A stretch of 64,000 nucleotides of DNA, from positions 32,001-96,000 of the IMG/VR virus record IMGVR_UViG_3300045988_176357, one strand, 5' to 3'. Below the pieces are notes generated by a model. That model saw only the letters and a list, made by a program, of their open reading frames with translations. It was not told the DNA's origin and did not search any database. The DNA is from a virus. Below, one piece after another: positions 8,741-64,000 of this stretch (the stretch's first letter is position 1; the number at the start of each line of letters is the position of its first letter). The position numbers and the translations under genes are program-made.

Positions 8741-8780
8741 TGCTACAGCCAGTACTCAACACAGCAGGCAGCAAACAAGG

Positions 8781-9311: not shown

Positions 9312-9556
9312 CAGAATGAGTCTTCCGTAGTACATGATCACCGACTTGCCGCAGTATGTACACATCACAGACCGCAGCAAGTTTCAGAACTCCATAGTAT
9401 AGCCGGGCGCTGCACTTATATTCAGCTAGGACGGAGCATCTCTCACAGTCAAGCTTCCTTCAGGCATCTTTCAGAGTGTCTCAGGAGATATGAGCGATTC
9501 CACGTATCAGAATATCATGGGCATCATCGGAGACACATCCGCCGCCAGCAACAACG
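9308..9556 (+). CDS. Hypothetical small protein.
   Basis: ATG 9308, frame 2, 3 TAGs, TGA 9554-9556. Codon positions verified. Confidence 0.35.
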
Positions 9557-19150: not shown

Positions 19151-21025
19151 ATGTATTAGAAGAGATATACAAGATCACTTGCAAACCCTTTCAGCACACG
19201 GTCCAACAGGTTCTTTCCAAAGACCATCAAGTAGTGCTTCGACTGGGCATAGTACATGCATGACAGATTTCCTGTCATAGGTACAGCTATAAACAAGGTC
19301 GTCAGATACTTCGCTGCCGATATAACAGTAACAAGCAAATAGTCTCCCTCTTAGACTGACACAGACTCGCTCAAGCACACATAGGAGCTGCTCAAGAACA
19401 GTTACAATCTGCTGTAGCTTCTGATACGCATTGGCTAGGAGCTTGCCACAATGGGCAATGTGTTCGTATATGCGATGCCTGTGATCAACCGGACACTGTG
19501 CTGTCCTGAATGTCGTAAGTTCGTGGTAGCCATGGATAAAGTGGTACCGAAAGTAGATTTTCAGTGGGACGGATAGTGCAAAGGCGTGTGTCCTAAGTGC
19601 GGCAAAAAGGTCACTTTTCTGATGGTTGACAAAGTCACCAGTGACTAGCTCGGGCGCAAGATCAGGTTTATGATCTACTCCCCGCGAGATGTTCAGCTCA
19701 AGTTCAATTAGCTTACAGGTTAGTACACATATCTGTACAAGATGCCTTCGCACATCAAGAATGCGATCGTGTAGGGCGATCCTGTATATCTCAGAACAAC
19801 ACCCAAAGTGTTCCTCAAAGGAGCTTTCTCCTAGAAGTTCATATAGTTCCCTGTCGATAAGTTTCTGCATCTCAGGACAGACACGCTGGCTTCCATGGAC
19901 AGGTTCTATAAGGGCTGGGGCACTCCTCTGTTCCTCAGCAGCTTCAACAACATTCTCAGACTGGCATATCTTGATAAGTTCAATTAGGCGGTTGCAACCG
20001 ACTTCATTGCTCCGATAAGAATGATCAGTCCTCCGACACAGCAGCTTCTTGCCGGTCAGGACAACCTCAGGCAGCCTATCAGCGGCCACGCTGTCAAGAA
20101 CTTCATTATGGAAGCCATTAAAGGGATCAGAGAGAATCCCTCTCAGTGGGTGGTATCTCCGTTCCCGCTCAACTATCAGATGCTCGGCGGATAGGCAAAG
20201 CAGCTTGCACCTGTGTAGCTGATGAAGTGGTACTAGGACAGAATTCTGTAGGATATGGCAATTCCTCTGTAGATCAGACAGACTACATTCCAGGCAGTAG
20301 CGCCATCTATGGGTCTCAGAATGTTTTAGCGGCAGTGGATACACTTTACTTCGCATCTTGACTACGGGCTCAGATGGCTTGTAGACAGAATCTGCTAGGT
20401 GCATCTGCTTGATCAGGTGTCGGTACGCCTTGACAAGACATCGTTCGTTTAGGACGACATGCACAAACAGACCATCCTTAACATGATGGGCAGCGGACTT
20501 GTCTCTACAGACACTGTTCTGAGTACTATAGGACTCGACTTCAAGGACTAGGTCAACAAGAAACTTGAAGAACAGAACTACGAAGCAGAAGAAGCCGCAA
20601 AGAGCCAGGCGAATCAGCAGCAGATGTAGATGACTGCTTCTGTATTGCCTCCTCCCGGATCATAGGGCATTGGAGCTGCACAGCTGAACATGTAGATGGT
20701 TCAGCAGGCGAACATGCCTCAGCAAGCTATGCAGCAAGGCGCACCTATGCCAGCAGCTCCTGCAGGAGCAGGCATGCCGCCGATGCCAGCAGGTTTGCAG
20801 AACAGTCAGTCTGCAGGTGTGTAGGCGCTGTTCCAGCAGGCACAGCAGATAGCTCAGCAGATATTCGACACAGGAGTTACGCAGGGTCCTGGTGCACGCA
20901 GAGCTGCTCTTGTGCAGTTGAAGCAACAGAATCCGTAGCTCCATGCACAGGTTAAGCAGATACTGTTGAACATTGATCAGCAGACCGCCTCGCAGGCAGT
21001 AGCACAATCCAAGATGCCGCAATGA
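19151..21025 (+). CDS. Large hypothetical virion protein with a CxxC…CxxC zinc ribbon and a Gln/Pro/Met-rich C-terminal low-complexity tail.
   Basis: Strong RBS TAAGGAG then ATG 19151. Frame 2 stays open (TAG only) to TGA 21023-21025. The overlapping 429-aa minus-strand standard-code ORF is Cys/His/Arg/Leu-rich and reads as antisense. Confidence 0.45.
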
Positions 21026-35900: not shown

Positions 35901-37889
35901 GGAGCTGACTTTGACGGAGACTCATGTAAGTCGTTGATAATCATATGGTTACAACAAAAATAGGGCTCTCAGGTAGCAAAAAAGATATATAGAGGCAGTT
36001 AGAATTGGCACTTGACAAATGCGAAATCTGGTGTATATTACCTTCATAATGACAAGGAGCCGCAGCTCCAGAACCAACAATAGAAAGAAGGTAATACAAT
36101 GATTTCCAAAAATGAAAAAGTCTCAGTGATGCCGTATCTTATGGAACTCTCTGAAGTTCCTGTCATCAAAGGATCGGAAGTTGCCAAGTCGCCTACTGTC
36201 ACCGAATGGGATGTTGAGGAAGGCACTTTGGTGAACACCATAGACCCTGCTACAGGTGAGATTGTGTTTGCTCCCATGACAAAGGTATCCAGGCACACAA
36301 ACCTGAAAATGTTCGACGTGAAGTTCGGTATCAGCGGAGCCTATGAGCACATGTCCACAGTGTCTGAGGATCACAGCTTGATCACATATAACAGCACATC
36401 TATGGAACTGGAAAAGACCAGACCTGAAGAAGCCCTCGGCGCATGTGTTCCGATGACCAGATTCAACTGGTGCAACAAGGTTAACGATGAGCAGGGATGT
36501 GCAACTCATATCAACTTCCCGTCTGGTAACTACTCACTGTCCTACGATATGGGTGTCTTCTTTGGCCTCATGGTCGGTGACGGTTGGGTAGCCAGCACAA
36601 GTGCCAACACAAAGGTGGCCCATATCGCTTGCTGCGAAGAGTCCCTGCAGAACTACATATTGGAACTGACAAAGAGCGCGTCTATGCCGTTCACCAAACA
36701 GGCGGCACTATTCAGCTATGCAGCGGATGAACAGAGATTCAGCCAGCGAGACAAGCAGAGATTCACTATCTACATGGATAACGAAGATAAGGCGTTCCTT
36801 GAGAAGCTCATAGGTCATGGTGCCGAGAACAAACATATCCCCTATAAGAGCTTCATGGGAAGCATAGCACACATGATTGGCGTCCTTATGGGTCTGCTTG
36901 CTACAGATGGCGCGGTATCACATACGCCTGGAAGCGGAAACAGAAAGTCAGCTAAGAAAGCTATCATTTACCACACTGTAAGTCCTACACTGAGAGATGG
37001 AGTGCAGGATTTGGCATGCAGGCTTGGTATAAAGACAAGTGTCACGACATACACTGGCACATCTTCTGGAAACACAGCATATGCAATTGTGTTCTCACTT
37101 GAGGACTTTGCTAGACTGTACGATAAGAATCCGACAAGATGTGTGATACCTGTCAGCTATAAGCAGGAAGCTCTTATGCGTATCGTTAACGATGTGCATG
37201 AGAACAATAAAGCGTCGTGCAAGACCACCGTCACTTCTTATGATATAGTGCCGTTCCCTCGCGGACTGTTCTGCGAGTTCAGCTGGGCAAAGATTGTCGA
37301 CATCTCAAGAGACAGTGTCATAGCTGCACGTACCAAAGGCTTCATAAAGAGAAGCGTCGCAAAGCGTATTGCAGATGCTCTTGAGCGTCGCGACTGGTCT
37401 ATCTACAAAGATCCTGCATACCTCAAGAAAGCTGACCAGACGCATCGCACTCCCGCCCAGGCCAAGGCACTTGTGGACAAGTGGATCGCCATGGTACGCA
37501 ACGACGACATCGGCTGGGAAGTCGTGACAGACGTGACTCCGTCCACATGCACTGAGGGATGGGACTGCACAGTGCCTGGACCGTACACCTTCTCGCTCAG
37601 CACAGGAACTATTGTGCAGGACACCGTGAACCTGCACGTGCCTGTTTCACAGGCCGGTATCCGCGACGTGCGCTAGAAGATGATGCCCGAGCACAATCTG
37701 ATCTCAGCGAGAAAGCGCAAGATATTATACGCACCGTAGAAAGCTTATACGCAGGGACTCTATGTAGCCACAAGAATGGGTGAGGCCAAGGACGTGAAGA
37801 CCTTCAACACGCTGCAGGAAGCCAAAGACGCCTACAGAAAAGGCCTCATCGACGTGGATACACCGATACTGATCAAGGAGAAGCGATGA
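29988..37889 (+). CDS. Multisubunit RNA polymerase: beta subunit C-terminal two-thirds fused in frame to beta' N-terminal half, one 2633-codon ORF interrupted by four inteins.
   Basis: ATG 29988, frame 0. Every frame-0 track fragment (30588, 31062, 31536, 31728, 33036, 35475, 35742, 36099) falls in this frame. Codon-checked at 32160-33060, 33680-34150 and 34680-34980. Beta motifs recovered: HSDDAYSMAANYVPMYSG…SKYGTQAVPLQQRQ (≈HDDANRALMGANMQRQAVP), GRNLRVGYMSYHGATYEDACALS, KPL(TAG)VGDKM…SGFQGSKG (≈QPGDKMAGRHGNKG). Beta' motifs recovered: FRPIDGGLFGQDIFGP, NRAPSLHKLS, YGADFDGD…LHVPVS. A roughly 35-aa linker joins beta and beta' with no TGA or TAA. TGA 37887-37889. Confidence 0.75.
30531..31577 (+). 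mobile_element. Intein 1 in RNAP beta, with a LAGLIDADG-like homing-endonuclease segment.
   Basis: Starts AQR|CYRADTLILTKKGWKP (block A). Block B FSVTPSHRMYV. Contains WAFVDAILKGDGKG. Ends …GFWCGN|SPGITGY. Confidence 0.6.
31899..32897 (+). mobile_element. Intein 2 in RNAP beta, inserted within the GANMQRQAVP motif.
   Basis: …SMRLLMG|CLHPDTPVLVVDKDG… Block B LITSPCHKWYIY. Ends …VYAVANGIITHN|SKYGTQAVP (canonical HN+Ser). Confidence 0.7.
33681..34139 (+). mobile_element. Intein 3, a mini-intein in RNAP beta, inserted in GDKM|AGRHGNKG.
   Basis: VGDKM|CYDEQTQVLTADGWKRF… Block B MVTPNHRNLV. Ends …AVWSGN|SGFQGSKG. Codon positions verified. Confidence 0.65.
35922..37622 (+). mobile_element. Intein-like insertion 4 in beta', directly after the catalytic DFDGD motif: Hint block B plus two LAGLIDADG motifs, with non-canonical junctions.
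   Basis: GADFDGD|SCKSL…; block B HMSTVSEDHSLITY; FFGLMVGDGWV and LMGLLATDGAV; …TGTIVQD|TVNLHVPVS. Alignment with E. coli DFDGDQMAVHVP places the exteins at DFDGD / TVNLHVP. The 35940-36098 segment is AT-rich and contains only TAG stops. Confidence 0.5.
36012..36039 (+). promoter_or_regulatory. Sigma70-like promoter (TTGACA-N16-TATATT) plus a downstream GAAGG RBS, inside the intein-4 region and upstream of the internal ATG at 36099.
   Basis: ttgacaaatgcgaaatctggtgtatatt read directly from the sequence. May be coincidental. Confidence 0.25.
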
Positions 37890-43009: not shown

Positions 43010-45319
43010 TTGGCTGTCACCACATTAGGCAGATAGGTAATCAAACAAGCGCTTCCTTAGAAGTACAGGAGCTTCGTTGACTAGCCCCTCACAAAGGCTC
43101 GCCAATAGAAGCTCACTACGCAGCTTGCCAAGGACAATCCATAGGCTTACATAGACATCCTGCAGAAGCTGAATGCCATCGCGTAGTCGACTGTATCTAC
43201 GTACGGCAAAGACACTACCATCACTCTGGATGACATAGATGCTGGAGAGAATGTGCGCAAGATGCATGCTAAGCTCCAGTAGCTGATACGTACTGTTGTG
43301 AACAGGAAAGATCTCACTCCGTAGCAGAAGTAGCAGAAGGTCATCTAGCTGGGTTACAAGTACACTGCACTGATGAAGGACCTTGGATTAAAGGATGCTC
43401 AGTAGCGTCGTACAGGTATTGCAAATCAGATTGCATCTGGATCCCGTGGCAACCCTGTACAGCTTATGCAGCTTCTTGTCGGCGACATGCAGATGCGTGA
43501 TGCCGCCAACAGGGACATCCCTTATCTTGCTACTATGCCGTATGTGGACGGTGATTCGCCTATGTCCTACTGGGCATCGAGCATGTCCGGTAGAAAATCA
43601 ACTTACGATACGCAGGCTGCTACAGGCATGGCCGGTTACCTGAACAAACAGGCAACCAATGTTATTCAGGCAACACCTATAGCTATGCGAGACTGCGGCA
43701 CTACCAATACAGGTGTGCCGGTATCAGCTACAGATCCTTAGAATGTAGGCTCCATACTGCTGCGCCCATGGAAGAACCATCCTGCAGGAACACCTGTCAC
43801 GTAGGAGATGCTGGACTAGGCTTAGTAGGGTGACGAGATTGTGATCCGCAGCCCGAACACATGCAAGGCTCACAACGGTGTGTGCGCTATGTGCTCAGGC
43901 ATCCAGGAAAACGGCAAGCTGCCTGCTGTAGGAAGCTACGTGGCACTGAATGCCATGAAGTCCTTCATCTAGCCGCTTACGCAGGCCGGTGTAAGCTGTC
44001 TGCATCCTGACACAAAGGTAAGTCTGGCTGAAGGTGGATATAAAAGAATAGCAGATATACAGATAGGCGATACTGTAATAGGTTGCGACATAGCAGGTAC
44101 AACTACACCTGTAAAGGTCACCAATGTATTCCATAATGGAATTCAGCCTGTATACAGAACTGTATCTGTTACATAGTCTGGTAAGCACTTGTAGCTCTTA
44201 TCCACACTTACACATAAATGCCTTATGCTGATCTAGGATGCACAAGTTCCAGCACTGCTGCCTATAGGGACACAGGCTAAGAAACGCTATATAGTACTGT
44301 CAGATAGGTCTGAGTAGCAAAAAGCTTAGATAATACAGCAGACATTCGTAGGCGATATATAGACCATAGATATCTAGGTTGACCATCCTGATCATCTGTT
44401 CCAACTTGTTGATTATCAAGTGGTAGCAAATTCGAAGCATGGTTCTGGTATGGGCGGCAAAAAGAGCTAGGACCCAGACGGCTAGGACCAGCCTACAGGG
44501 TTCGACTCCATAGCGCGCATGCTCCTTGTGCCCTCTACATTCCCTGGTGGCGCAGTGCTCTCTCAGGTCGATGGTCGCGTGTCATCTGTACGTCCTGCTC
44601 CGCAGGGAGGCAACTACATTACAGTCGGCACCAATACGGTATATGCGCCACGCGTACGTACAGTAACAGTAAAGCCCGGCGACATCGTGTAGGCTGGAGA
44701 CACCCTTACCAATGGCGTGCCTAATCCCATGTAGGTAGTCAAATACAAAGGTATCGGCTAGGGCAGACATTACTTCACGAACAAGCTTTTCGAGCTGCTT
44801 CCGAAATCCGGCGCAGGCACAGCAAGACGTAATGTGTAGCAGTTCGCCCGCGCCCTCATCAACAAGGTTCGCATAACATCCGACCAGGGTTTCGGCGGCT
44901 ATTATCCTGGCGACATTGCAGATTACGACGATATAGCGTAGAAATGGAGACCCAGAGAGGACAGCAAGATGCTGAACCTCAAGGAAGCCACAGGAAAGTA
45001 CCTGTAGGAGCCAGCACTGTATTACAGCATAGGAACAAGAATAACACCCAAGGTAGCCAAGAAACTGCAACAGTACGGTTACCAGCAGGTGAATACCAAT
45101 TAGAATCCTCCGCCGTTCTAGGCGAAGTTCGTAAGCTCCAAAGCGTTCTCTACTACGTAGAGGCGCTGGTTGCCCAGACTTAACGGAGAACGGCTTAAAG
45201 AGGCTATCTTCGACGCTGCAAGAACTGGAATAACTGACAGTTATGACAGCCCTTCATTCGTCGACAAGCTTATCATAGGCCCCTATAATCCGGCAAACAT
45301 TAAACCAGCAGGAATATGA
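43010..45319 (+). CDS. Multisubunit RNA polymerase beta' subunit, C-terminal fragment, carrying one mini-intein.
   Basis: Frame 2 opens after TAA 42992-42994; start codon uncertain (TTG 43010, or ATG 43262 which lies inside homologous sequence). …SGSRGNPVQLMQLLVGDMQM…YWASSMSGRKSTYDTQAATGMAGYLNKQATNVIQATPIAMRDCGT aligns with beta' …[20 protein letters not shown]…[45 protein letters not shown]. C-terminal GDTLTNGVPNPMQVVKYKGIGQGRHYFTNKLFEL… is also conserved. TGA 45317-45319. Confidence 0.7.
43997..44431 (+). mobile_element. Intein 5, a mini-intein in the beta' trigger-loop region.
   Basis: SFI(TAG)PLTQAGVS|CLHPDTKVSLAEGGYKRIADIQIGDTVIG… ends …YQVVAN|SKHGSGMGG. Confidence 0.6.
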
Positions 45320-45324
45320 AGTGT

Positions 45325-47466
45325 ATGTCTAACAATCTCATCATCGACGAAGGCTATCTGCGGAAAACAGCAGCGAATTAGCCTGGCTAGGGGCCGTCCT
45401 TTGAACAGCAGTTCGGCATCCTTGCGAATGCCCAGATCACCGACAAGTACCCCAGCCTCGGCAACTATCTTGTAGCTGCTCAGCTTCTTGACAAGAGTGA
45501 CGACAACTCGTTCGCCGTGTGCGCTGTTGTGTACAAGCTCGGCAACAACTTCATCTACGTGCCTGCTGTGTTCCGCAATGGAAAAATATTCACCGGCTAG
45601 ATCATGGAAGTTCCGTCGCTGCAGAGAATGCTGCCGTTGTCGGATGCATGGATGAGCTGGGTGAAGAACAAGGACATCGGCGGATAGGGCTAGCTAATTC
45701 CTTCATAGCTCTCCAGGCTGTACGGATAGAATGCATCTTCTGCACGCAGCAGAGAGCCTGTCGATCCGCTCATGAAAACAGCGTCTGTGAACAGTGTCTC
45801 TGTTATGGATACGGCATTGAAGCTCGGCAAGAAGGCTTCCTAGAAGCTCGTCGACATGTTCACCAACATTGACTATCTGAATGCCGCCTTCAAGTATTAC
45901 AGCCCTGAACAGATCGACTCATTCGCAAAGAAGGCTGCACAGATGTTCCCATAGACATAGCCTGTTTAGATCATCTCTGTGCTCGACAAGAAAGCTGCTC
46001 TCCTTACATAGGAACAGAAAAAGAATCTGTATGCCGACGGCTTTGTGGTCAAGTAGGGCAATAAAGTAGACTGGGGTCCCGCGTAGGATTCCATTAAGGC
46101 TGTCGAATATAAGAATCTTCGCTAGGCCTTCGTTAAGCCGCAGAAGTCCTGCATGTGCCAGGTGCTGACTCGGACCGGATAGCTGCAGGATGTAACTTAT
46201 CTTGTAGTTGAGGGTAACTGTAACAGAGATGTCTGTTGCTGCTGTGATTAGTGGGATCCCGGTTCCAGATATAAACGTGGAGTCAGTACTGTTAAACACG
46301 TTGCTCCGGCCAAAGACTCTCCATTCTTCGGCAACAGATAGTACAAGAATGTAATAGTTCAGGACGGCCAGTATCTTACTGTGTAGAGTGTTCCGTGTGT
46401 TCTGCTCAGCAGTATCAAGGATATCGACGTTTCCGCTACAGGTAAGAGCATATAGGGTCTCAAATAGATTCCGTACAACAGCATCCTGCTGACAAAAGAT
46501 GGCTACACGATGTTCGGCCTCAGAGGAACGAAGCAGCCGAACGGAGATTTTGTCTCCTATAATCTCACAGTTCACATTACAGAAGATGACAACCTCAAGC
46601 AGCCGCTGATTCTTAAAGAGTATATTGAAGTACCGAAAGGCAGCCGCATCATCTTCCCCGCAGGCAACTACAATACTGACGGCACACCTAAGCAGGATAA
46701 ACTGCAATAGACACACAAGTCTGTGTACGTGGCTTATGGAGATCTCGGCAGAGCCATCGACGCTTTTGATTCCAAGTACTACAGCAAGCTGAAGGTAACC
46801 AGCGACGGACAGTAGATTTCCATATCCGGTGCCAAATCCAATCCGGCTGACAGAATGCAGGTGAAAGAAGCTGTGCTGCACCTTGTGCGTGACTACGGAC
46901 TCGCTCCTCTGGATGCAAAGGCGATTGTCAAGAAAGCCGGTGCAGGCAGCATACTGAATCCTGTATCAACTTCGTACAGATTATTCAAATCTGCCGCGTA
47001 GATGGTTTAGAGCGACATGTGGAAACCTGCCGACATCGGCTACTCTGAAGTACAGAATGTTCCTCCGCAGGTGACACAGGAAGATATTCAAGGCAAGGCA
47101 CTGCAGGACGAGCGCTAGATGCAGACTGTGCAGCGTGCGGCTGAAGCAGGTGTGAAGTAGGTGTTCGATACACAGACACTTAAGATGCTTGTGCAGGCTG
47201 CTGATCCGCATGAATAGGTACTGTAGGCGCTGCCGGACTTCATGAACACGCTCGATAAGCTGTGCAAGCTGCTGTTCCTTTTCAGATGCCACTTGAGCGA
47301 TATGTAGAAGAAGTACGGAGCTGTGAAGCTCAGATCACTTTAGTTGTCCATCAAGAACACGCTGAATGATCTGTCATAGCTCACGATTTTCCTCAAGCTC
47401 AGAGGTCTCAACAATGGAGAAGCTCCTGATGCAGGAGATCTGCAGACAGGAACTATGATGAACTGA
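45325..47466 (+). CDS. Large hypothetical protein of 713 aa, a portal candidate by position at the head of the morphogenesis block.
   Basis: ATG 45325, frame 1, includes track ORF 46510-46710. About 45 TAGs. TGA 47464-47466. The 320-aa minus-strand standard-code ORF 45919-46881 is Leu-rich and reads as antisense. Confidence 0.4.
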
Positions 47467-50098: not shown

Positions 50099-52027
50099 AT
50101 GATACAGAAAAGAATCGTCCCTTAGGCTTCCGATTTCGGAGGATAGGAACCTGTACAGATACTTAAAGTCAGTTCCAAAGGGTTGGATAAGTCTGCATCC
50201 ATGCAGAAACGTGCAGCAGCTTTCGACGACATCATAGCAGATCTGAAGCCGATGCCCAAGAAAGCGTACCTGCACGTTATCACTACTGGAGCGATGTAGC
50301 ACTTCGGTATCAACAGGAACTGCTTCGTAGCAGGTACTATGGTTGTCACCTGGAATGGCACGAAAGCAATCTAGCACATTCGTGTGGGTGATCTTGTGCA
50401 GAGCGGCAGCGGTTAGATGCGTAGGGTTAACGACACATCTGCCAGGTGGTACAAAGGTCAGCTTGTAAAACTGACAGCAAAGAACGGATAGATCGTTGTC
50501 ACCATGACATAGGATCATCCGGTACTTGTTCTCGATGCCAGCTAGAAGTGGGGCGACTTTGTTTCTGCCAAGGATATCAAGCCTGGAGCTAAGTTGCTGG
50601 TACCTGACGACAAAGTAACATAGACCGCACTGAAATACAATATAACTGTAGACAAGGTGTAGTTCACTTATACAGAGTCAACTGTCGTCTATGACCTGAA
50701 GATCGAAGTCGAACGTACCTTCTGCGTTCCTTTTGTCGTGCACAACTGCGACGGCTGGAATTAGGATGCTTTTGTGTACAGACCTCCGATGCCTAAAAAT
50801 GCATCCTGCAAGTAGATTCAGCTCGATGGCGGACTCAGGAAGTACCATTCGACATACCTGGACAAGGCAGCTGTATATCAGGAGCACCAGACTGACAAGT
50901 AGAAGTCAGGATAGGTGAAAGCAGCTGTGTACAATGATAAGATGCACAGAGGCTAGTTGCTCATTGAAGTGGACACTGACAAGTGGGCATAGCGGCTGAA
51001 CAAGAAGGCGAACGGCCAGGACATATTCCTTTCGGTTGGAGCTTCGCTGAGAACCGATTATTGCACCGCCTGCGGGAATGCAGCGCACACGCTCGACTAG
51101 CACTGTTAGCACATCAAGAAACATGCAGGAATGGTGCTGTCAGACGGTACCAAGATCGGCATGATAAACGATGCTCCCAAGTTCTATGACATCTCAGGAG
51201 TGAACGTACCTGCAGACCAGATGGCATTCGTGCTGCGCAAGGTAGCATCAGGCGACAGTGCAGCCAAGGCCATTGAAGCTGCGAGGTTCCAGGCAACAAG
51301 ACCTCCTATGTCATTGTCAAAGGCTGCAAGACTTCTCGGTAAACTCGCGTAGCTGTAGAAATGCATTCAGTGTGAAGCACAGGACGATCCGATCTTTGCT
51401 GACTCTCCGGAAGCTGTGGAAGATTTTCTAAAAGCGGTATAGAATTACGACGCCGACTAGATCATCGATCAGTGCAACCGCAAGGCAATCCTTCTGTCAC
51501 CGAAAATGCTCTTTAAGATCCTCGGCAAGGAATCTGATAATCAGTAGCTGTTCAATACCTTTGCCTAGAGCTGCCCTTGCAGTGGTCAGCACCTCATGTA
51601 GGATATGCAGCAGGACTAGGAATTCAAGCCTATGCTCAGCGACGGCAGTTTCGATTCTGTGCTTCCTGTAGATCTCACTTTATAGGATGTTCTTAAACAG
51701 TTCATACCTTAGTTTGGTGTCAGCAGGCCTGCTCTGAACGGCAAAGCTATACGAATATAGATAACATCCGCCTAGCCTTAGAAAGATATGCAGCAGTTCA
51801 AAGACAAACTGCAGGACAGCATGCAGGACTCAGAATCGAGTTAGGACGATGATTCCGGTGATCGACAGAATGAGGATTCAGACAAAGAGGAGGATATGTA
51901 GAAGAAGGCGTCTCTCGTTGGAGACCAGTTCAGAAGAACATATGCCAGATACGTTCTGAGTTTTGCTTAGCGTAACAGTTAGGACACCTGCATGTTAGCC
52001 ATGCAGAAGCTCGCCAGATATAAGTAA
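50099..52027 (+). CDS. Head-morphogenesis protein of 642 aa carrying a mini-intein, with a zinc-binding CxxC…H…H region and an acidic C-terminal tail.
   Basis: ATG 50099, frame 2, includes track ORF 51131-51352. TAA 52025-52027. Confidence 0.45.
50321..50746 (+). mobile_element. Intein 6, a mini-intein.
   Basis: …HFGINRN|CFVAGTMVVTWNGTKAIQHIRVGDLV… Block B VTMTQDHPVLVL. Ends …VVYDLKIEVERTFCVPFVVHN|CDGWNQ (canonical HN+Cys). Confidence 0.6.
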
Positions 52028-55520: not shown

Positions 55521-56309
55521 ATGTCAGTAACTATTCAGACCGTCATCACCAACAAGAGTCGCGGAGTTCGTTCCCTTATTGTTTCCAGATCAAAGACGTA
55601 CAGTCTCAGAGCAGGAGAGACAGTAGTTCTCGATTACGATATCTGGTCGTACCTCACACCTACAGTAAAACGGAAACTTGAACTGGATGTGCAGATGGGA
55701 AGACTCGAGATCACAACAAGGCTGTTCACAGACAATGCCAACATCTCTGTCGACCCTGATGGAACATATAAGATTGCCAACGGCGGACTTGAGGTCGCCA
55801 AGCCCAAAGAGCAGGTGAAAGAAAATAAGCTCCCGGCAGCCAAGGCTGACAAGGCCACCACCAACGGAAAACTGTTTGACAACAGTGGTACGGTTATGGC
55901 TGACAAGAGCTCGTCTGTCATGCAGAAAGCCATCGGAGCCAAGCGTGTTGAGGCTGGTAATACAGATCAGACAGAACAGCCTGCACAGGACAAAACAGGA
56001 TTCACTAAAACCGACATGAGCTCCTCGGGTCTTATGCATACTATGAACAATCTCGAACCTGCACATTCATCCAGCGTGTTCAAAGCCACCTCGACAGATA
56101 CAACCAAAGCAGAGGAAGAAGCCAAAACAGAAACAGAGAAAGAACTGTCACGTCCTGAATACATCGACGAACTGTATGCAGCTAAAGATTACACAGCCAT
56201 CGCAGGAGCGCTGACAGAGTGGTATCCTGGAACAACGTTCACAAAGGCTTCTATCAAGAAATGCAACAGCTATGCTGAACTCAAAGAAAAGTACCCTGTG
56301 CTTGCGTAA
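55521..56309 (+). CDS. Hypothetical virion protein, 262 aa, with no TAG codons.
   Basis: Complete ORF in the standard code. AAAGGAAG RBS. TAA stop. Followed by a terminator. Confidence 0.5.
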   Translation: MSVTIQTVITNKSRGVRSLIVSRSKTYSLRAGETVVLDYDIWSYLTPTVKRKLELDVQMGRLEITTRLFTDNANISVDPDGTYKIANGGLEVAKPKEQVKENKLPAAKADKATTNGKLFDNSGTVMADKSSSVMQKAIGAKRVEAGNTDQTEQPAQDKTGFTKTDMSSSGLMHTMNNLEPAHSSSVFKATSTDTTKAEEEAKTETEKELSRPEYIDELYAAKDYTAIAGALTEWYPGTTFTKASIKKCNSYAELKEKYPVLA

Positions 56310-56370
56310 TCAGGCTTATATAACGCTCCGCACTTTGTAGCTCGCTACATCATAACCTCCTCCTTTCTTC

Positions 56371-56415
56371 CGTCTGTACAGTATTACTCCTTTTGCTGTA
56401 CAGACGGTCTTTTAT
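56371..56415 (+). terminator. Rho-independent terminator.
   Basis: ccgtctgtacag…ctgtacagacgg followed by a T-run. Confidence 0.65.
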
Positions 56416-56449
56416 TACGCACTCACCTTAGTACAGTATAGGAACACAA

Positions 56450-56995
56450 ATGCGTAAATAGATAATTCAGTTTGTAACAGGAACTTAGGGATAGATACAG
56501 CGACTGTGTCCTGTAGCTACGCAGCAACAGCGCCTTATCCTCAATACAACTACAGGACAGGTATTCTGGGACTATGCAGGTGTACGGCATAAAGTAACAG
56601 CATAGATTGCCGACTGGAACCAGCAGGACTCAGATGCCGAGTCGTACATAAAGAATAAGCCTGTAATACCTTCTGATATCAGCCAACTCACAGACAACAC
56701 AGGGCTGATACCTAAAGATGTTACCGATCTTACAGACACTTCAGGTAATGTCGGCTACCTTAAATAGAGTGTCAATATGCAGGATGTAACACAGGACTCT
56801 GGTGCATATTACCTGCAACTTAAAGCCACCAGACTGCCGACATTCATACAGGCACCCTCAGGTGCTGTACATGATATATAGGGAGATTCTCTTACGGTAA
56901 CACCTACAGGGAGTGTGAAGATGAACCTCTCAAGGTATCTTGCATACGAGAATGCAACAATAATAAACTCTCAGTGGAGCTTGTTATACAGTTAA
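56450..56995 (+). CDS. Hypothetical protein carrying the RYLAYxxxT motif shared with the tail-fibre repeat domain.
   Basis: ATG 56450, frame 2, about 9 TAGs, TAA 56993-56995. Confidence 0.35.
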
Positions 56996-57014
56996 TAAAA
57001 TTAAGGAATGTAAA

Positions 57015-57281
57015 ATGAAAGACAAAGAGTAGAAAGTACCCGGTACCGTTGTGTAGATTAAGTCGGTTGAAACCTGCGATGAAGCTTGTGAAACTTGCAC
57101 CCAGTAGTGCTCTGAGGAGAAGCTTCAGGCTTTGTAGCAGGCTTTACAGTACTCACAGTTTTAGGTCATACAGAAATCAATTCTGCTTGTTGCAGTAACA
57201 GGTAAATTACAGTGTATGATCGGTACAATCCAAATAATTCTCCTCATCGGGCTTATGATCCATATGTTTTTCTTCATGTGA
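57015..57281 (+). CDS. Small membrane protein with a Cys motif and C-terminal transmembrane segment. Holin-like size.
   Basis: ATG 57015, frame 0, TGA 57279-57281. Confidence 0.3.
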
Positions 57282-57284
57282 TAA

Positions 57285-57680
57285 ATGCGGTACACAAGAA
57301 CCTAGCTGGCTAACCACTATAACGTCACAAAAGGAAAGCTTCGGCGTATATTGAAAGCGCTGCAGCTTCAGCCTGTGTAGGTTGAACGTACTGCTACAGG
57401 GCGTCCTGTGTTCTATTATGCCGACAGCACTGTGTTGTAGATCGACAAATACCTGGATGCTCTTATGCAGAAGAAACAGCAGTAGCTTGTAAAGTGCTGT
57501 ATATGTAAGCAGAGTGTCAGTAAGAGCAGTATGATCGGCGGCAGATGCCAGATGTGTTATGTGAAGAAGTGCTGTGCACCTATTATGTACGGAAAGTAGT
57601 TCTGGAACAGGAAGGTAAACGCACAGACTGTCAGCACAGCTATTCGTTATCTGCAGTCAATGTTACCTGGCTCCACGTGA
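57285..57680 (+). CDS. Putative DNA-binding protein (HTH-like N-terminus, Cys-rich zinc-finger C-terminus). An overlapping frame-2 ORF, 57545-57823, is an alternative.
   Basis: ATG 57285, frame 0, TGA 57678-57680. Confidence 0.3.
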
Positions 57681-58072
57681 CAGGTTTGAACAGTCTGCGA
57701 AGCTTCCTTCTGGTGGCTTTCTTTTTGGCTTTTCTGTGCATCGAATCCGGTGTGACCTATCTGCCACCTGGAGTAGAATTCATGCCGTACAGTGAATTGA
57801 AAGAGCCGTACTTCTTTATGTAGCGCTTTTCCAGTCTGTCCAGCTGCTTGTTAGGCGCCTATTGGAGTATCTAAACTGAGAGCTGATCCCAGTTACCTGT
57901 AGCTTTGAGACGTTTAAGCTCCCTGACCAGCTTTGTACAGCCTGACCAGGGAGCCTTGTGTCGCTACCAGCGCTTTGAGAACGGCGTAGTGGATATGCCT
58001 ATGTAGTGCTTCTGTCCGCTTGTTATGAGATACACATAACCGTTACCCTTCTTGGGTACGTACTAAAAGTAG

Positions 58073-58492
58073 TCAGGATGCATCACCAAGCAGCTCTTTT
58101 ACACAGCATCTTTTGCTGTGTCTGATTTTGTTCATGTGGTAGTGAGCTGCACCGCATCCTCTGCACACATACAGCTGCTTCTTGTGGAAGTCACTAGATA
58201 CATACAGACTGTCTATGTTGAACAGCAGCTGACGCACTTTGCCTGACACTGATCGCTTGTTCCAGTCAGCAAGGTCGCATGAAGTGTGCCACAAAGCGCA
58301 ATCAGCCGTGTTGCATTTCACTTCAGCGCCTTTTCCGTTCTCATAGACGTGCACTTCAGGAATACTGCCGCAGAAAGGACAAGGCAGAACATGCTTAGGC
58401 AGCTTGGCTGTGCCTATTTCGTACTTGTCTGTACCTGGCACTTTGATGCCGTTCCTGCGGAAGATCTTATCTATGACTGTGTGTTTGTGCAT
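58073..58492 (-). CDS. Lar-family-like (restriction alleviation) zinc-ribbon protein with a second CxxC ribbon.
   Basis: Standard-code ORF on the minus strand with no TAG. LPCPFCGS…C…C resembles the Lar CPFCG motif, followed by YVCRGCGAAHYH. Confidence 0.5.
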   Translation of the reverse strand: MHKHTVIDKIFRRNGIKVPGTDKYEIGTAKLPKHVLPCPFCGSIPEVHVYENGKGAEVKCNTADCALWHTSCDLADWNKRSVSGKVRQLLFNIDSLYVSSDFHKKQLYVCRGCGAAHYHMNKIRHSKRCCVKELLGDAS

Positions 58493-58596
58493 GCTGTTCC
58501 TGTTGGTGTCTCTCCTGTGAAGTATAAAAGGGGCCAGAGTGCTGCAGGAGTTCAGTACTCTTGTCGACTGGCCGGTCTAGGCCCCTTGGAATTAAC

Positions 58597-58924
58597 TGGC
58601 GCTCCCACTGAGATTCGAACTCAAGATCTGGCGGATTTCATTGATAATCGAGGACTTACAACAATCCTGATATCTCTGGACTATATCATCTTCTCCGTTT
58701 CCAGAGAAGGAGCGCTTCGGACTTTCGTCCTACTCCCTTGCGGGATAGTCTCTGAACCCTTTCCGGGCTCCATAGCTTTCGCCTTAGGAGATCCCTTGAT
58801 CGGCTGCTGATTGCCTTCGGCGTTACCCGTTAAGGTGTCCCAGCAATTCACTTTCTTGTTCGACACACCTCGCGGTGTGAAGCTCCAAACAGAGTCCGCT
58901 GTTCTGCCATTAAACTATGGGAGC
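58597..58924 (-). tRNA. Amber-suppressor tRNA, anticodon CUA, split by a group I intron. Exons are 58924-58891 and 58638-58597.
   Basis: The spliced product folds as a cloverleaf. Acceptor GCUCCCA/UGGGAGC, U8, D-arm GUUU-AAUGGCA-GAAC, anticodon stem GCGGA/UCCGC, loop C-U-C-U|A-A-A giving anticodon CUA, T-arm UUGAG-UUCGAAU-CUCAG, discriminator G, encoded CCA. Confidence 0.7.
58639..58890 (-). mobile_element. Group I self-splicing intron (252 nt) inside the suppressor-tRNA anticodon loop.
   Basis: 5' exon ends in U, which pairs as U•G with the internal guide GGAG (a 4-bp P1). The intron ends in G (…CAAUG). P7-type core strands UUCAGAGACUAUC and GAUGAUAUAGUCC are present. Confidence 0.65.
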
Positions 58925-58931
58925 ATAATAT

Positions 58932-59007
58932 TGGTTGCGGGGACAGGATTCGAACCTGCATATCCAAGCTTATGAGGCTTGTCGGCAACCGTTGCCACCA
59001 CCCCGCC
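58932..59007 (-). tRNA. tRNA with anticodon CAU (Met, or Ile2 if lysidine-modified).
   Basis: Reverse-complement sequence read directly: GGCGGGGTGGTGGCAACGGTTGCCGACAAGCCTCATAAGCTTGGATATGCAGGTTCGAATCCTGTCCCCGCAACCA. Anticodon stem CAAGC/GCTTG, loop CTCATAA. T-loop GGTTCGAATCC. Acceptor GCGGGG/CCCCGC with a possible 1•72 mismatch. The D-arm register is slightly irregular. Confidence 0.6.
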
Positions 59008-59405
59008 ATATGTACACCTTAGTGCGCCTTGGTACTCCTTGTTGTTACATGACTAATCTACTGCAGACGTCGAAAAACAAAACAACTAACGCACTCAGCT
59101 CTAGTAAGCAGAAGCATACAAAAGCAATAATAAAAGGACACAACAATGTAGTTAATCACCAGCTTGGTCGCACTGATACTTGCTATATTCGGCGGGTTTG
59201 GGTATATGGTCAGGCAGACCGAGAAAGGATTCAAAAGGCTCTAGACCAGAATCGAAACCTTGTAGAAGAAATTAGATACGACAGTCGATTAGGACACATG
59301 TTAGTAGAGGCGCTGTCATTATGTAACAGCAGTCTCATTCCAAGAGCAGATAAGTTAGCTTACGTTGTCCATACAGCGCCTGACGCAGATATTAGAGAGC
59401 AAAAA

Positions 59406-59831
59406 ATGAAGTACGCGTTGCTTGCTTGTTCTATATTGTTGTTTGGGTTTCTGTTATCTTGTGCGCCCTTTGGCTCTACTGTATAGCCGCAGCCGAAGTA
59501 GCTGACAGTTGTCTAGCAAATAATACAGTAGAACAAAGACAGCATACGCAGCATATCGAATTAGATAAATCAGGACTATTAGATAGGGTATAGAACACAT
59601 AAACTTATCACATAGGTGCAACCTGAATCCGATCTGCACTATAAATAGCTTGGAAAGATTGTTTAGTCGATTGTGAAGTAGGTTTAGCAACAGGCCAACA
59701 AGACAAAGACTCAGCGCAAAGACAGAGCTAGAACTGCAGCTGTAGCAGTGGTAGCTATAGTTTGCCTGTGCGCTATAGGCAGATCTTGCAAAAGGGTAAG
59801 GGCTATATGCAGATCAAATAGAGATTCATAA
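59406..59831 (+). CDS. Putative lipoprotein (signal peptide plus LLSC lipobox), Gln-rich.
   Basis: ATG 59406, frame 0, about 14 TAGs, TAA 59829-59831. Weak RBS. Confidence 0.25.
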
Positions 59832-59928
59832 AGCTAATGGCAAAACTCGGATTCAAGCTGATGTAGAATAAAGCAGTCAGGTTTCAGGTTATCCGAAGTC
59901 TGCTTAAGTATTTATCAAGGATGGAATA

Positions 59929-60837
59929 ATGGCTGATATCTGTATTCCTTAGGTCACAGCAGGTGCTGGTGGTGTTGGTGGAGGACAGGGAGCCGATGGT
60001 CAGGCGTCCCTGATGGCTGACGGACACTATGCCACATCATATGGTGTACCTGTTATAAAGATCACCACAGGAATGACAGCCTAGTACACACTGCAGCTGA
60101 CCAGAGACATGTAGGGAACGATACCTGCATAGCTGTAGGACATGCATATAATTCAGTTCATGTGTCTGGCAGACGGCATGCACGGCAAGGCGCTGTTTCA
60201 AGTACCACTCACATATCTCGGCAACGGACGTGTACAGCTGCACCTCACACCGGCATAGGTCGACTACAGACCTGGGCTGCATTATGCATAGATACATTGC
60301 TATGATGAAAACCAGGCATTACGGCACGTGTTCAAGTGCTGTCTGTAGCTATAGAAATCTTTTGATGGCAGCCACATCGACTGCAGACGACCGATAACCA
60401 TTGCCTAGGTTCGTATGTAGCTGTATGATACGTGCTCAAAACAGAATCAGCTGCTGAATGACCTGTAGTTCTCCGACATCGTTATAGCAAGATGTATCGG
60501 CAGAGCTGTACAGGACTGGAACTAGATGCCTCCGACATTAGCCAACGCTTAGACAGCAGCTTCCTTCCCTTTCCCTGCCAACCTGTGTTCCGGCGCAGCT
60601 GCACATTGTCTGAGAATGGCCATGTACAGATACAACAGGAACGGTATGCGTCACTCCAATGCCGGACTTACATTCGATGACAACGATAAAGGAGCTCTTT
60701 ATGCCAGCCTGGCTGACAAAGCTATGACAGACTGGAAGAGCTGGATAATAGCCAAGAAGAGCTAGCTGAACATGCTGTAGTGCATGGGAAGCATTTCAGA
60801 CGGATTCATGTAGGGTTCGTAGCCTTGGTGGAGGTAA
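59929..60837 (+). CDS. Hypothetical protein.
   Basis: AAGGA RBS and ATG 59929. Frame 1. About 25 TAGs. TAA 60835-60837. Confidence 0.25.
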
Positions 60838-60838
60838 C

Positions 60839-61678
60839 ATGTCCTCTCCGTTCGATTCCATAAAGGTATTTGTGCAGCCGAATGGCACCAGAGTCGTCAG
60901 CTGGCAATTTACACATGGAGTATAGATTCCATAGACCGCTACCATAACTGTTCAGAGAGCACGAGCTGGTGGCTAGTGGTAGACATTGGAAGAGGGGCTT
61001 CCTGTCTCTTACTGCTACTCTGATACTACCGCCTGGAACAGGAACAAATATCAGAATGACTATTACAGGCTGATACTTCAGACACAAGACGGTCAGAGCT
61101 ACACATCAGATCCGCAGCATACAGGTATGACTCTCTCATATCCTTACTATTCATAGGCTGCGAATCTCATAAGACTGAGCTAGTTGTAGATACAGAGAAC
61201 AGGAAGATAGGGGTATCTGCTGAAAAAGATAACCTATGGACCAAAATGTCCTGTATGTCAGCAATTCGGTGACGATCATCCTGTAAACTAGCACTGTCCT
61301 CAGTGCCTTGGTACAGGTAAAAAGGGCGGGTACTATAAAGCGATTCCTTTAGGTGTTCTGTAGCAAGGATAGTCAGCTGACCAGTCTGTAGCCATGTCCG
61401 GGCAGTAGGTATCATAGACATTGACTGTGAAATGCACTGCATGGCCGATAATACAGCACGGAGATGTGTGGACAGATAAATATACAAGTCTCAGATACTA
61501 CATAGATAAGATACAGGTCGCTTCGAAATTTAAACATGTGCCTTTGATATATACATTACAGATGCATTTGATATAGCAGTCGGATATAATGTATACTGAT
61601 AATGCTGATCAGCTTATTCAGGAAGCACATGTTTAGTACAGCAACCCTGACTGGGACAAGGCCTTCGGTTAGTTATGA
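60839..61678 (+). CDS. Hypothetical protein with a CxxC…CxxC zinc ribbon. The 3' end may be over-extended into an AT-rich region.
   Basis: GGAGG RBS and ATG 60839. Frame 2. TGA 61676-61678. Confidence 0.3.
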
Positions 61679-61740
61679 TATTTACAGACTACACATAGAA
61701 AAGCACATTTCAGAACGGTTACGCTCAGCAGTACCGTATC

Positions 61741-62352
61741 ATGAAGTACTTCAAGGATCTGCTCAATAACTGGTTTGCAGATAAGAGAAACATAAAGGAC
61801 TAGCGCCTTGTCAGTCTGCTGTATGATGTTAATGGGAATCTGAATAAGGACTGCTTCAAGACAGGTACTGCATTCAATCCTGACGGCACTTATGCAGGTA
61901 CTACACCTGCTGTTGTTGTCAGTCTTGGCACTGTCACATACCAGAACAGACCTATTAACAGAGCAGGCAATCCCTAGTTCCTCAGGAATCCAATGCAGCC
62001 GCCTGTAAAATAGTGCAGATTCAAGCTCATTCCGATTCAAATTACCGTCATTACATAGAGTTGTGACGGTACTATCTTATTAGCTGAACTCATATAGCTG
62101 TTTCTTGCTATGAACAGTTAGGTTATACAGCAGGACACAAATGCTCTAAGTTTCGTCAACGTGAACTAGATAAGCAGTCCACAAGCTGTACAGCCCGGAT
62201 CAGGAGGCAACGCGAAACAGCTGTATGCATCTACCATATCTGTGTCTACTATGAGTGTACTCACTTGGACAACAGATACACAAGGACCTGTGTTCAATGG
62301 TTACAGCATGCGGAATGCGGAGCTCGGCAATATTAAGGTAACTAACAGCTGA
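61741..62352 (+). CDS. Hypothetical protein.
   Basis: ATG 61741, frame 1, about 9 TAGs, TGA 62350-62352. Confidence 0.35.
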
Positions 62353-62397
62353 TATGCCCAACAACGTGTCAGTATCGAAACAATAAGGATAAATATG

Positions 62398-64000
62398 ATT
62401 ACAGACTATAAGGATCCTAGTGTAACCCTTAATCAGGTTTACAAGGCATCCACTGTCGGTACTACACCGGCGTTGGGAGCCTGTATTATCGGTCCGAATT
62501 ACTTTGTACGTACATATTCCGACCTGAAGGAGTCTCTCAGACTCGACAGTTAGGACAATTACGCAAAGTAGGACTATTCGGTCGTGTATACTCCTGCAGA
62601 CGGACTTTCCTTCAGATACTTCCCTGGAAGAGAGACGAAAGACGGCAGTGTAGACGAAGATTCCGTGAAGGTGCTTGTCAAAAACGCCCAGCTCTAGTAC
62701 CTTCCTGAGTTCGGAGCTTCTGACAGCATCACTACGGATGCAGTGTATGGTACAGATACGATCAGTATCAAACAGGAAGGCATCTACTATGTCTTCAACG
62801 GTGCAGGAAGCGACACATCTGTTCCGGCTGTTCAGGCTGGAGACGCAGTGAAGATCACTGTCGCCGGGGATACTGTTGACTGCTACGTTCAGGGTTTCCT
62901 CAGAGACGACGGAGGCAAGTATACCAAGTGCGTTCTTACCAAGAGTCTTCCACAGGGAGACATCACTGCGGTCAGTTTCAGGCGCGTTGTCGATTGCTAT
63001 GTCAACCAGGCATATGTGACTGTCCGCACCGTCGATGGCGTGCAGCAGGTTTCCATCCAGCCTAATGCAGAGGCGACCGTAGATCTCGGTATCGGTCAGA
63101 CAGAGTATCCTATTCTGACAGGTGCTTTCTATGTCGAATACAGGTGTCGGTCCAATCGCTATGTCGGTACTTATGGCATGGTCGCTGATATCGATGATGT
63201 CCAGGGAATGCTTGGCAAAGTCTGCGCGGACAATCCGCTAGGTGTTGCTGTTGCGTGCGCTGTGACTGAATCCGATGGCGCATTCGTGTACTTCACAGCC
63301 ACTGCATAGGAAGACCTCAACAACAGCGCTGTTAAGGTGTACAACGATGCGGCGGATCTCATTGCCGACACTGACGGCATTTACGGCATTGTTCCGTGTA
63401 CTGCCGATGCAGAAGTTACGAAAAACCTGTTCAACTTCGTGACCAACCAGTCCGGTGAGTAGGTTCCGTATCCCAAGTATCTGTATGGCAGCTGCGACAT
63501 TCCGACTGAAGAGAAGCTGAATGGTACGTATCTCACTGTGACAGATTCTTCTGCTTCCGGCAACACAACTACGGTAACGTTCAGCAGCTCTCCGCTGCTT
63601 GCTATGTCTACGGTTGTTAAAGGCGATGTGCTTCGCATAGGCGATAAGAGCTACACCATCACTGGTTCCAACCACAAGGACAAGGTGTATGTTGCAGGCG
63701 ATCAGACAGCAAATATTGCTTCAGGCGCCGTTGCAGACATTTATCACACGCTGACTGACAACGCTCAGATTGTGGCAAGTATCATTGCGGCTAAACCGGT
63801 TGCCGACAGACGAGCATCCATTGTGTTCGCGGACGGCCCGATGTACAACGGATAGCCGGTTCACAATTACTGTGTTGCAGCTGCTCTTGCTGGAATGCGT
63901 TCCGGAACTTATCCGCATGCTCCCCTCAGCAATGTTACCGTCACCGCTGTCACGACTTCATAGGAGCATGGGTTTACAGCCAGTCAGCTCAAGCAGCTCG
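62398..64000 (+). CDS. Large structural protein, tail sheath or tail-tube-like candidate, 3' partial.
   Basis: AAGGA RBS and ATG 62398. Frame 1 links track ORFs 62743-63309 and 63538-63855 through TAGs. Runs off the window end. Confidence 0.45.

Follow-up and report, generated by a model that had tools for sequence, protein, structure and literature searches.

A predicted group I intron within the anticodon of a CUA tRNA gene, present in some and absent from other closely related recoded human-gut phages

A 64,000-nucleotide stretch of viral DNA (positions 32,001 to 96,000 of IMG/VR virus record IMGVR_UViG_3300045988_176357; hereafter the window, numbered from its first letter) carries on its minus strand a gene for a transfer RNA (tRNA) with anticodon CUA that is split within the anticodon by a 252-nt insert. 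We favour, with a probability of roughly 85%, the explanation that this is a functional TAG-decoding tRNA gene, most likely delivering glutamate at TAG codons, into which a group I intron of IA-like type without an open reading frame (ORF) is inserted between positions 35 and 36. The intron would be a selfish, optional and mobile element that is tolerated because it is spliced out. No earlier account of a phage suppressor tRNA that carries a group I intron was found in the open-access literature, which agrees with what had been surmised in the original prediction, a reading of the same DNA that preceded this analysis.

Exon 1, the insert and exon 2 follow each other in this order on the minus strand between 58400 and 59100, and the coordinates and lengths of the original prediction were matched to the base. 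When the exons are joined, ARAGORN recognizes the 76-nt cloverleaf that had been proposed, with anticodon CUA and anticodon loop CUCUAAA; with long introns permitted, the same program calls the split gene as tRNA(cta) i(35,252) at 58597-58924, the insertion point lying between anticodon positions U35 and A36. The uninterrupted allele found in relatives does not differ from the product that splicing is predicted to give; its score with the Rfam tRNA model RF00005 is 61.4 bits (gathering score 29). Both ARAGORN in its default mode and Rfam at the gathering threshold missed the split tRNA(CUA) and reported the neighbouring tRNA-Met alone. No second CUA tRNA was found by ARAGORN within the 64-kb window.

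The limits of the insert are given by alleles that lack it. A scan of IMG/VR with the spliced anticodon stem-loop identified the record IMGVR_UViG_3300045988_177579 (L001), in which tRNA-Met is followed by an uninterrupted tRNA(CUA). L001 is ~97% identical to window positions 55963-64000, and the lone gap in this alignment corresponds exactly to 58639-58890. With 24 nt of exon 1 as the query, a scan of metagenome sequences yielded 13 contigs, 12 of them representing the phage locus and the 13th an unrelated tRNA-Gln; those of the 12 locus contigs whose source is given in the record name are all human-gut assemblies. The full 252-nt insert is present in four contigs (L090, L093, L096 and L099), while in five it is truncated, and two (L091 and L092) have an uninterrupted tRNA(CUA). 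In the three independent contigs without the intron (L001, L091 and L092), the tRNA(CUA) is identical at every base to the joined exons, as the predicted cloverleaf would have it, and these contigs are ~97-99% identical to the window across the aligned flanks. Because these alleles equal the joined exons and the bases flanking the two junctions differ, so that the boundaries of the 252-bp indel cannot slide, the boundaries are exact. Scans of IMG/VR for the exon-intron junctions gave only chance matches or nothing, and the intron-plus allele did not turn up in them.

Eight alleles were compared, namely five full-length intron-containing ones (window included) and the three intronless ones. Exon 2 shows no differences at its 42 positions and exon 1 together with tRNA-Met 0-1 differences at 117 positions, whereas the flanks diverge by 2-5% downstream and by up to 19% upstream. 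The terminal CCA is encoded in seven of the eight alleles; L001 has GCGCGAA instead (at ~2630-2636 of that contig), and its tRNA(CUA) would need CCA addition. Copies of the intron diverge by 0.4-2%, which is less than their flanks (2-19%). Among the five full copies there are nine polymorphic sites, six of them unpaired positions of loops or junctions; at the three paired sites, Watson-Crick and wobble pairs are exchanged (U41 with G/A178, U227 with G/A236, and U219 with A/G246). The polymorphisms of L090 and L099 occur in the L5a loop, the P9-region changes of L090 and L093 are in loops or preserve pairing, and the 3' strand of P3 has G in the window and A in the other four full-length copies, a change from U.G to U-A that keeps the pair. 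Such a pattern of substitutions argues against a decaying pseudogene.

By flank similarity, intron-plus and intron-minus alleles are intermingled. The intronless L001 and the intron-containing L093 differ at only 1 of 281 upstream and 17 of 877 downstream bases, whereas the window and L096, both with the intron, differ at 42 of 281 upstream bases and at 1 of 252 intron bases. Since intron presence does not track flank relatedness, these alignments indicate that gain, loss or transfer of the intron by recombination has taken place among variants that circulate together. The region directly upstream of the tRNA pair (59008-59288) is a divergence hot spot, where the window and L090 differ by 14-19% from the other six alleles, compared with 2-5% elsewhere; this distribution suggests recombination breakpoints at the tRNA locus.

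A further contig, L089 (OHCS01000202.1, positions 7858-9430), contains exon 1 and the first 91 intron bases followed by other sequence, the junction corresponding to window position 58800. A different group I core comes next and then a 376-residue TnpB protein (OrfB_IS605, 79.5 bits), with no exon 2 within 3.8 kb. It was considered as a mobile, TnpB-bearing version of the intron, an interpretation that was dropped given that only the 91 bases are shared and exon 2 is absent within that distance. Recombination between introns could account for L089, as could an IStron-like element or chimeric assembly at the conserved core, and the contig is not used as evidence here.

The assignment of the insert to group I was examined with covariance models. 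The hallmarks originally noted are all present, including the guide GGAG, the U.G pair at the 5' splice site, the terminal G, and the core strands UUCAGAGACUAUC and GAUGAUAUAGUCC, and chance falls far short of explaining the match. In a local search of 551 nt, the Rfam group I model RF00028 gave 31 bits (E 4e-6; gathering score 50), and its alignment placed the P4, P6, P7 and J8/7 strands well and misplaced P1 and P2 into the exon. An 18-nt P7/P7.1 core is shared by 73 IMG/VR contigs. The closest relatives among them, L022 and L082, are ~70% identical over 180 nt and score 73 and 82 bits with RF00028, above the gathering score; the L022 intron sits inside a DNA-polymerase gene. We then used a covariance model (R1) built from 30 aligned IMG/VR relatives, from which the window was excluded and one spurious hairpin of the consensus was removed. 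Across the 64 kb, R1 has a sole match at 58678-58859 on the minus strand, with 98.3 bits and an E value of 4.8e-23. The search that the original prediction had proposed with RF00028 thus found the intron locally and below threshold, and the family-specific model recovered it with a much higher score.

Within the 30 relatives, 96.8% of cells are paired, compared with 30-46% when partners are slid, and two-sided changes number 212 cells against 30-48 with slid partners; none of 500 shuffles reached the observed covariation values. Covariation is seen in P3 (strongly), P6, P7.2 and P8. All family members have a common layout that comprises the P3 5' strand, J3/4 AAU, P4 UGCUGG, P7 GAGACUA, CCC-GNRA-GGG (P7.1), a variable covarying P7.2, GAAG, the P3 3' strand, a covarying P8 and AUGAUAUAGUCC. 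In the window, every helix of the P1-P9 fold envisaged for the intron was located, among them the conserved core P3-P4-P6-P7-P8 with the P3/P7 pseudoknot and J8/7. Hairpins P7.1 and P7.2 between P7 and the P3 3' strand are the mark of subgroup IA. The insert has both of them at 58745-58719, and this hairpin layout places it with the IA-like group I introns of phages. The IA layout agrees with the reported near-universal IA class of tRNA introns at position 35/36 (PMC13011429). No ORF occurs inside the intron in any of the six frames. Two other IMG/VR viral contigs, L079 (1217-1530) and L043 (4819-5438), have a tRNA-Thr(UGU) split at 33/34 by an intron of the same family; the L043 intron is 544 nt long with an HNH-like open frame inside. 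Given these two contigs, group I introns in phage tRNA genes are probably not rare and commoner than annotated.

The proposed maturation pathway, for which we infer catalysis, co-transcription and trimming, is as follows. A single minus-strand transcript most likely carries tRNA-Met and the split tRNA and extends to a structured element followed by a U run. The intron would fold on its own, and its guide GGAG would form P1 with loop bases C32-U35, placing the U35.G pair at the splice site. A free guanosine, held by the candidate guanosine-binding helix P7 with its bulged A, would attack after U35; the adjacent guide UUU, contiguous with the P1 guide, would pair with A36-A38 to form P10; and the freed 3'-OH of U35 would attack after the terminal G. 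The exons would thereby be joined into the 76-nt tRNA with loop CUCUAAA, to be trimmed by host enzymes. On the predicted pairings, the exon bases engaged in P1 and P10 are confined to the seven of the anticodon loop, so that the anticodon stem and the rest of the tRNA body can stay folded during splicing, as in the classical tRNA-Leu intron.

The function assigned to this tRNA depends on the use of TAG as a sense codon, which had been predicted and is evident from plus-strand ORFs with dozens of in-frame TAGs (64 in the 2633-codon gene at 29988-37889). TAG makes up 3.42% of the codons in plus-strand genes, compared with 0.89% for GAG and 2.3% for GAA and GAG together, and GAG is rarer than GAA despite the preference of the genome for G-ending codons. 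TAG codons are spread over nearly all plus-strand genes of the window, including those for RNA-polymerase-like proteins.

To assign an amino acid to TAG, a portal-like protein (19151-21025, plus strand) and a second protein (45316-47466, plus strand), both with TAG translated as X, were compared with a large protein collection. Two sets of homologues were obtained: close relatives with 8-14% Q and 1-4% E, and more distant ones of normal composition. In standard-code homologues of the two proteins, columns aligned with TAG contain E at 33%, D at 16-17% and Q at ~2-8%; in the same homologues, columns aligned with CAA or CAG of the query contain Q at 50% (first protein) and 29% (second). Under empirical substitution profiles, E has the highest likelihood for both the first protein (-1110 vs -1282 for the next residue) and the second (-3601 vs -3866 for Q). 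The recoded relative P0012 has 30 TAG codons (all Q in the database), 3 GAG and 53 Gln codons, and the standard-code relative P0022 has no TAG, 28 GAG and 54 Gln codons. The reading of TAG as glutamine (genetic code 15), implicit in the original prediction, does not fit these data, the TAG columns not being aligned with glutamine. Codon swaps at TAG among near-identical alleles are mixed (CAG 9, GAG 6) and not independent. Based on the homologue alignments and codon counts, TAG has most likely replaced GAG and encodes glutamate in this phage lineage.

Public proteins of recoded relatives (P0001-P0017 and P0046-P0070) have been translated with Q at TAG, resulting in 9-14% Q and 1-2% E; the portal protein P0012 (L102, 201-2090) has Q at 30 of 30 TAG positions. 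If TAG is glutamate, the public sequences of recoded relatives are systematically wrong at ~5% of residues.

The 5' body of tRNA(CUA) is of glutamine type. Its first 24 body bases are those of bacterial tRNA-Gln(CUG) genes, which all have U1-A72, whereas the suppressor has G1-C72. A scan of a genome collection with the 5' body retrieved only tRNA-Gln(CUG) genes of Chloroflexota and of one Hyphomicrobiaceae genome. In most bacteria, tRNA-Gln is first charged with glutamate by a non-discriminating glutamyl-tRNA synthetase (GluRS), and the amidotransferase that follows needs U1-A72. With G1-C72 in place of the U1-A72 that the amidotransferase needs, a Gln-type body could keep its glutamate and escape amidation. 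The even chance that we give the wider picture covers a clade of human-gut phages (longest contigs ~190 kb) in which TAG is glutamate and the commonest Glu codon, and in which the sole decoder seen is the Gln-bodied, G1-C72 CUA tRNA, possibly Glu-charged; in most members this tRNA would first have to be cut from a group I intron, so that nearly every phage protein would depend on a ribozyme. Borges et al. state that, where the code of a phage is unlike that of its host, the reassignments they saw were TAG to Gln and TGA to Trp and no others, and no report of TAG to Glu in phages was found in the open-access literature. If true, TAG as glutamate would be a new stop-codon reassignment in the phage repertoire.

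Several observations weigh against a spliced, functional tRNA gene with a mobile intron. Only 64 kb of a ~190-kb genome was seen, leaving room for a second, intronless CUA tRNA. RF00028 at the gathering threshold has no match at the insert. P3 is weak, as GAAAGUG and CGCUCCU form four standard pairs, two A.C pairs and one G.U; a P3 with two A.C pairs is also found in L022, the intron of an essential-looking DNA-polymerase gene. The intron contains no open frame and therefore no homing endonuclease of its own, and splicing itself is deduced from sequence features.

One possible but unlikely route of spread, compatible with an optional mobile intron, is collaborative homing, in which a neighbouring GIY-YIG endonuclease cuts the intronless alleles of co-infecting relatives at a target site that the intron interrupts, and repair copies the intron into them. 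Collaborative homing is known from T7-like phages, and T4 SegB acts in the tRNA gene cluster. A GIY-YIG gene is located ~500 nt downstream of the tRNAs on the same strand, and in L090 a GIY-YIG-like ORF of 333 residues (recognized by eye) directly follows the tRNA and its 3' element; the patchy presence of the intron among close relatives and the divergence hot spot of the upstream flank would also fit. However, all three intronless genomes (L001, L091 and L092) carry the GIY-YIG gene at 57634-58083 as do intron-plus relatives, which is hard to square with cutting of the intronless allele, and the large GIY-YIG-like ORF is found in only one of the five full intron-plus contigs.

An adaptive gate, as suggested in the original prediction, appears improbable. 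Under this hypothesis, the rate or conditions of self-splicing set the supply of suppressor and thereby time the translation of TAG-containing genes. In intron-plus genomes the tRNA has to be spliced to work and, there being no other CUA tRNA in the 64 kb, decoding does depend on the split gene as far as the sequence covered goes; ribozymes also have a precedent in suppressor-tRNA maturation, namely theta ribozymes (PMC10879173). But three sister genomes have the same tRNA without an intron and share the recoded genes. The better conservation of the intron (0.4-2%) than of its flanks (2-19%) could be taken to favour a gate, although recent horizontal spread equally predicts it. The proposed restriction to TAG-rich late genes was not borne out, as nearly every plus-strand gene in the window is TAG-rich, the RNA-polymerase-like ones included, and there is no obvious late-only set. 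As intronless sisters share the in-frame TAGs and relatedness of the flanks does not predict which phages carry the intron, an optional mobile element is the better description of it than a built-in regulator.

It is very improbable that the gene is dead, with an intron that has lost splicing, a split tRNA reduced to a pseudogene and TAG read instead by a host tRNA or one encoded outside the window. The weakened P3, the sub-threshold RF00028 score and the fact that only a third of the genome was seen would be in line with a dead gene. On the other hand, the exons are invariant in the five full-length intron-plus alleles while their flanks diverge, the intron polymorphisms spare the structure, the core elements are all intact, and standard-code hosts supply no CUA tRNA for the 3.4% of codons that need one. 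Finally, a chimeric join of unrelated reads has a negligible probability: L089 does switch sequence inside the intron at window position 58800, and conserved cores could mislead assemblers, but the same 252-nt insert occurs at the same site in the window, four full-length and five truncated contigs from separate metagenome records with their own single-nucleotide polymorphisms.

Table 1. Positions of the split tRNA(CUA) gene, its predicted intron elements and neighbouring features in the window
Feature	Position	Strand	Description
5' exon of tRNA(CUA)	58891..58924	-	34 nt, GCUCCCAUAGUUUAAUGGCAGAACAGCGGACUCU, 3' end ...GCGGACUCU; acceptor 5' strand, D arm, anticodon stem 5' strand, loop C32 U33 C34 U35
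Insert	58639..58890	-	252 nt, 5' end GUUUGGAG, 3' end ...CAAUG
3' exon of tRNA(CUA)	58597..58638	-	42 nt, AAAUCCGC...GGGAGCGCCA; A36 A37 A38, anticodon stem 3' strand, variable loop, T arm, acceptor 3' strand, G73, CCA
Encoded CCA	58597-58599	-	end of 3' exon
Internal guide	58883..58889	-	UUU (58889-58887) and GGAG (58886-58883); read from sequence, pairings predicted
P1	GGAG 58886-58883	-	predicted to pair with exon-1 CUCU; U35.G at splice site
P10	UUU 58889-58887	-	predicted to pair with exon-2 AAA; directly 5' of P1 guide
P2 hairpin	58864..58879	-	CACACC-GCGA-GGUGUG
P3 5' strand	58849..58855	-	GAAAGUG; model R1 alignment
J3/4	58846-58848	-	AAU
P4, P5, P5a hairpin	58805..58845	-	P4 UGCUGG/UCAGCA, P5 CCUU/AAGG
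P6-P6a-P6b	58765..58795	-	CCUAAG...UAUGG, which we take to be the 11-nt GAAA tetraloop-receptor motif; GAAA loop cap; read from sequence
P7 5' strand	58746..58752	-	GAGACUA, invariant in family; pairs with UAGUCC 58678-58683, read from sequence
P7.1 hairpin	58734..58745	-	UCCC-GCAA-GGGA; family-wide CCC-GNRA-GGG; model R1
P7.2 hairpin	58719..58730	-	GGAC-GAAA-GUCC; all five pairs covary in family
P3 3' strand	58708..58714	-	CGCUCCU; model R1
P8 hairpin	58690..58709	-	CUUCUCUG-GAAA-CGGAGAAG; covaries in family
J8/7 and P7 3' strand	58678..58689	-	AUGAUA; UAGUCC
P9 region and terminal guanosine	58639..58674	-	AGGAUU-GUUGUA-AGUCCU with outer stem; G at 58639
tRNA-Met(CAU)	58932..59007	-	first of two-tRNA unit; ARAGORN; Rfam tRNA 41.3 bits; identical in eight alleles
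Three-way-junction element and U run	58514..58587	-	directly 3' of tRNA
Free-standing GIY-YIG endonuclease gene	57634..58083	-	PF01541 33.3 bits, cut-off 22.6; six in-frame TAG

Neighbouring features of the tRNA unit are also listed in Table 1. The tRNA(CAU) has a G1.A72 mismatch atop the acceptor stem, and its anticodon stem lacks a GGG/CCC run. The three-way-junction element is the probable end or terminator of the tRNA transcript; it scores 28.6 bits against Rfam int-alpA (24.1 in L001), below the gathering score of 35.8, with a fold z-score of -1.6. A theta or other HDV-like ribozyme 3' of the tRNA was considered and rejected, the region having no such Rfam match and only this sub-threshold int-alpA one. 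Scans for sigma-70 promoters and terminators gave nothing beyond the shuffled expectation. A small cysteine-rich protein is encoded on the minus strand between the tRNA unit and the GIY-YIG gene (58076-58492), with a sub-threshold match to Lar restriction alleviation (17.6 bits, cut-off 28.6). Because of its six in-frame TAGs, translation of the GIY-YIG gene would itself need the suppressor tRNA. In L090, the 333-residue protein, with what look by eye like C-terminal DNA-binding repeats, is encoded by a 1-kb insertion at ~5380-6400, and this contig lacks the equivalent of window 57264-57704.

The RNA-polymerase-like genes of the plus strand (29988-37889, 43262-45319 and 50099-52027) have an ADFDGD motif and matches to PHROG RNA polymerase beta; several intein-like inserts with blocks C...HNS / C...GNS are apparent in them by eye only. 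RNA polymerase accounted for the only matches of the window proteins in the PHROGs search. A DNA search of the INPHARED phages returned no relative of the locus, and the only INPHARED relatives of the portal protein, 23-26% identical to it, come from Salmonella phage Arash and Vibrio phages; a label as zeta crAss-like phage was dropped on account of these portal relatives.

With respect to its implications, the locus places a predicted self-splicing ribozyme on the critical path of a change in the genetic code. Papers on crAss-like phages describe recoded genomes without a detectable suppressor tRNA, and a gene that is split by an intron and missed by default tools may explain some of these reports. 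Such a gene can be recovered by a tRNA search that permits long introns, or by looking for group I cores beside tRNA halves. The natural pairs of intron-plus and intron-minus sister phages make the cost or benefit of the splicing step measurable, and engineered codes may profit from such a compact suppressor cassette that splices itself.

Among known systems, group I introns of phage protein genes include those of T4 td, nrdB and nrdD, Twort orf142, the SPO1 DNA polymerase, and the many of Jug and zeta crAss-like phages. It is to this class that the closest relatives found by sequence for the present intron belong, L022 being ~70% identical with the same core, P7.1, P7.2 and unusual P3. In contrast to them, the host gene here is a tRNA, and the exon context consists of 4+3 loop bases rather than coding sequence. 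Classical group I introns of tRNA genes interrupt tRNA-Leu UAA of cyanobacteria and plastids, tRNA-fMet, Azoarcus tRNA-Ile and Agrobacterium tRNA-Arg. They resemble the present one as small ORF-less ribozymes in the anticodon loop that form P1 and P10 from loop bases and leave the tRNA body intact. They differ in being mostly of subgroup IC3 and located at 33/34, 34/35 or 36/37 (sites from PMC13011429), whereas the intron described here has P7.1 and P7.2 and is located at 35/36.

Closer in position are the group I introns at 35/36 in tRNA-Asn, -Asp and -Tyr genes of Patescibacteria, for which self-splicing was shown in vitro (mSystems 2026, PMC13011429). They have in common with the phage intron the same site, the U that closes the 5' exon, and the intron-final G; they are mostly of class IA, mostly without an endonuclease gene, and missed by standard tRNA finders. 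However, they interrupt ordinary sense tRNAs on bacterial chromosomes, whereas the present intron occurs in a phage tRNA for a reassigned stop codon and is polymorphic among near-identical genomes. Theta (HDV-like) ribozymes adjoin the suppressor tRNAs of recoded gut phages (Nat Commun 2024, PMC10879173); there too, maturation of a phage suppressor tRNA involves a ribozyme. Those are small self-cleaving RNAs 3' of the tRNA that trim the trailer, in contrast to a predicted splicing ribozyme inside the anticodon loop. Finally, unclassified, 'enigmatic' introns have been described in Thr, Tyr and other tRNA genes of Lak megaphages and jumbo phages (PMC6784885, PMC13037316). Like the present insert, they were defined by comparison of alleles with and without them in TAG-recoded gut phages. 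Unlike it, they were not reported from the suppressor, and the intron described here has been assigned to a class (group I), a structure and a host tRNA.

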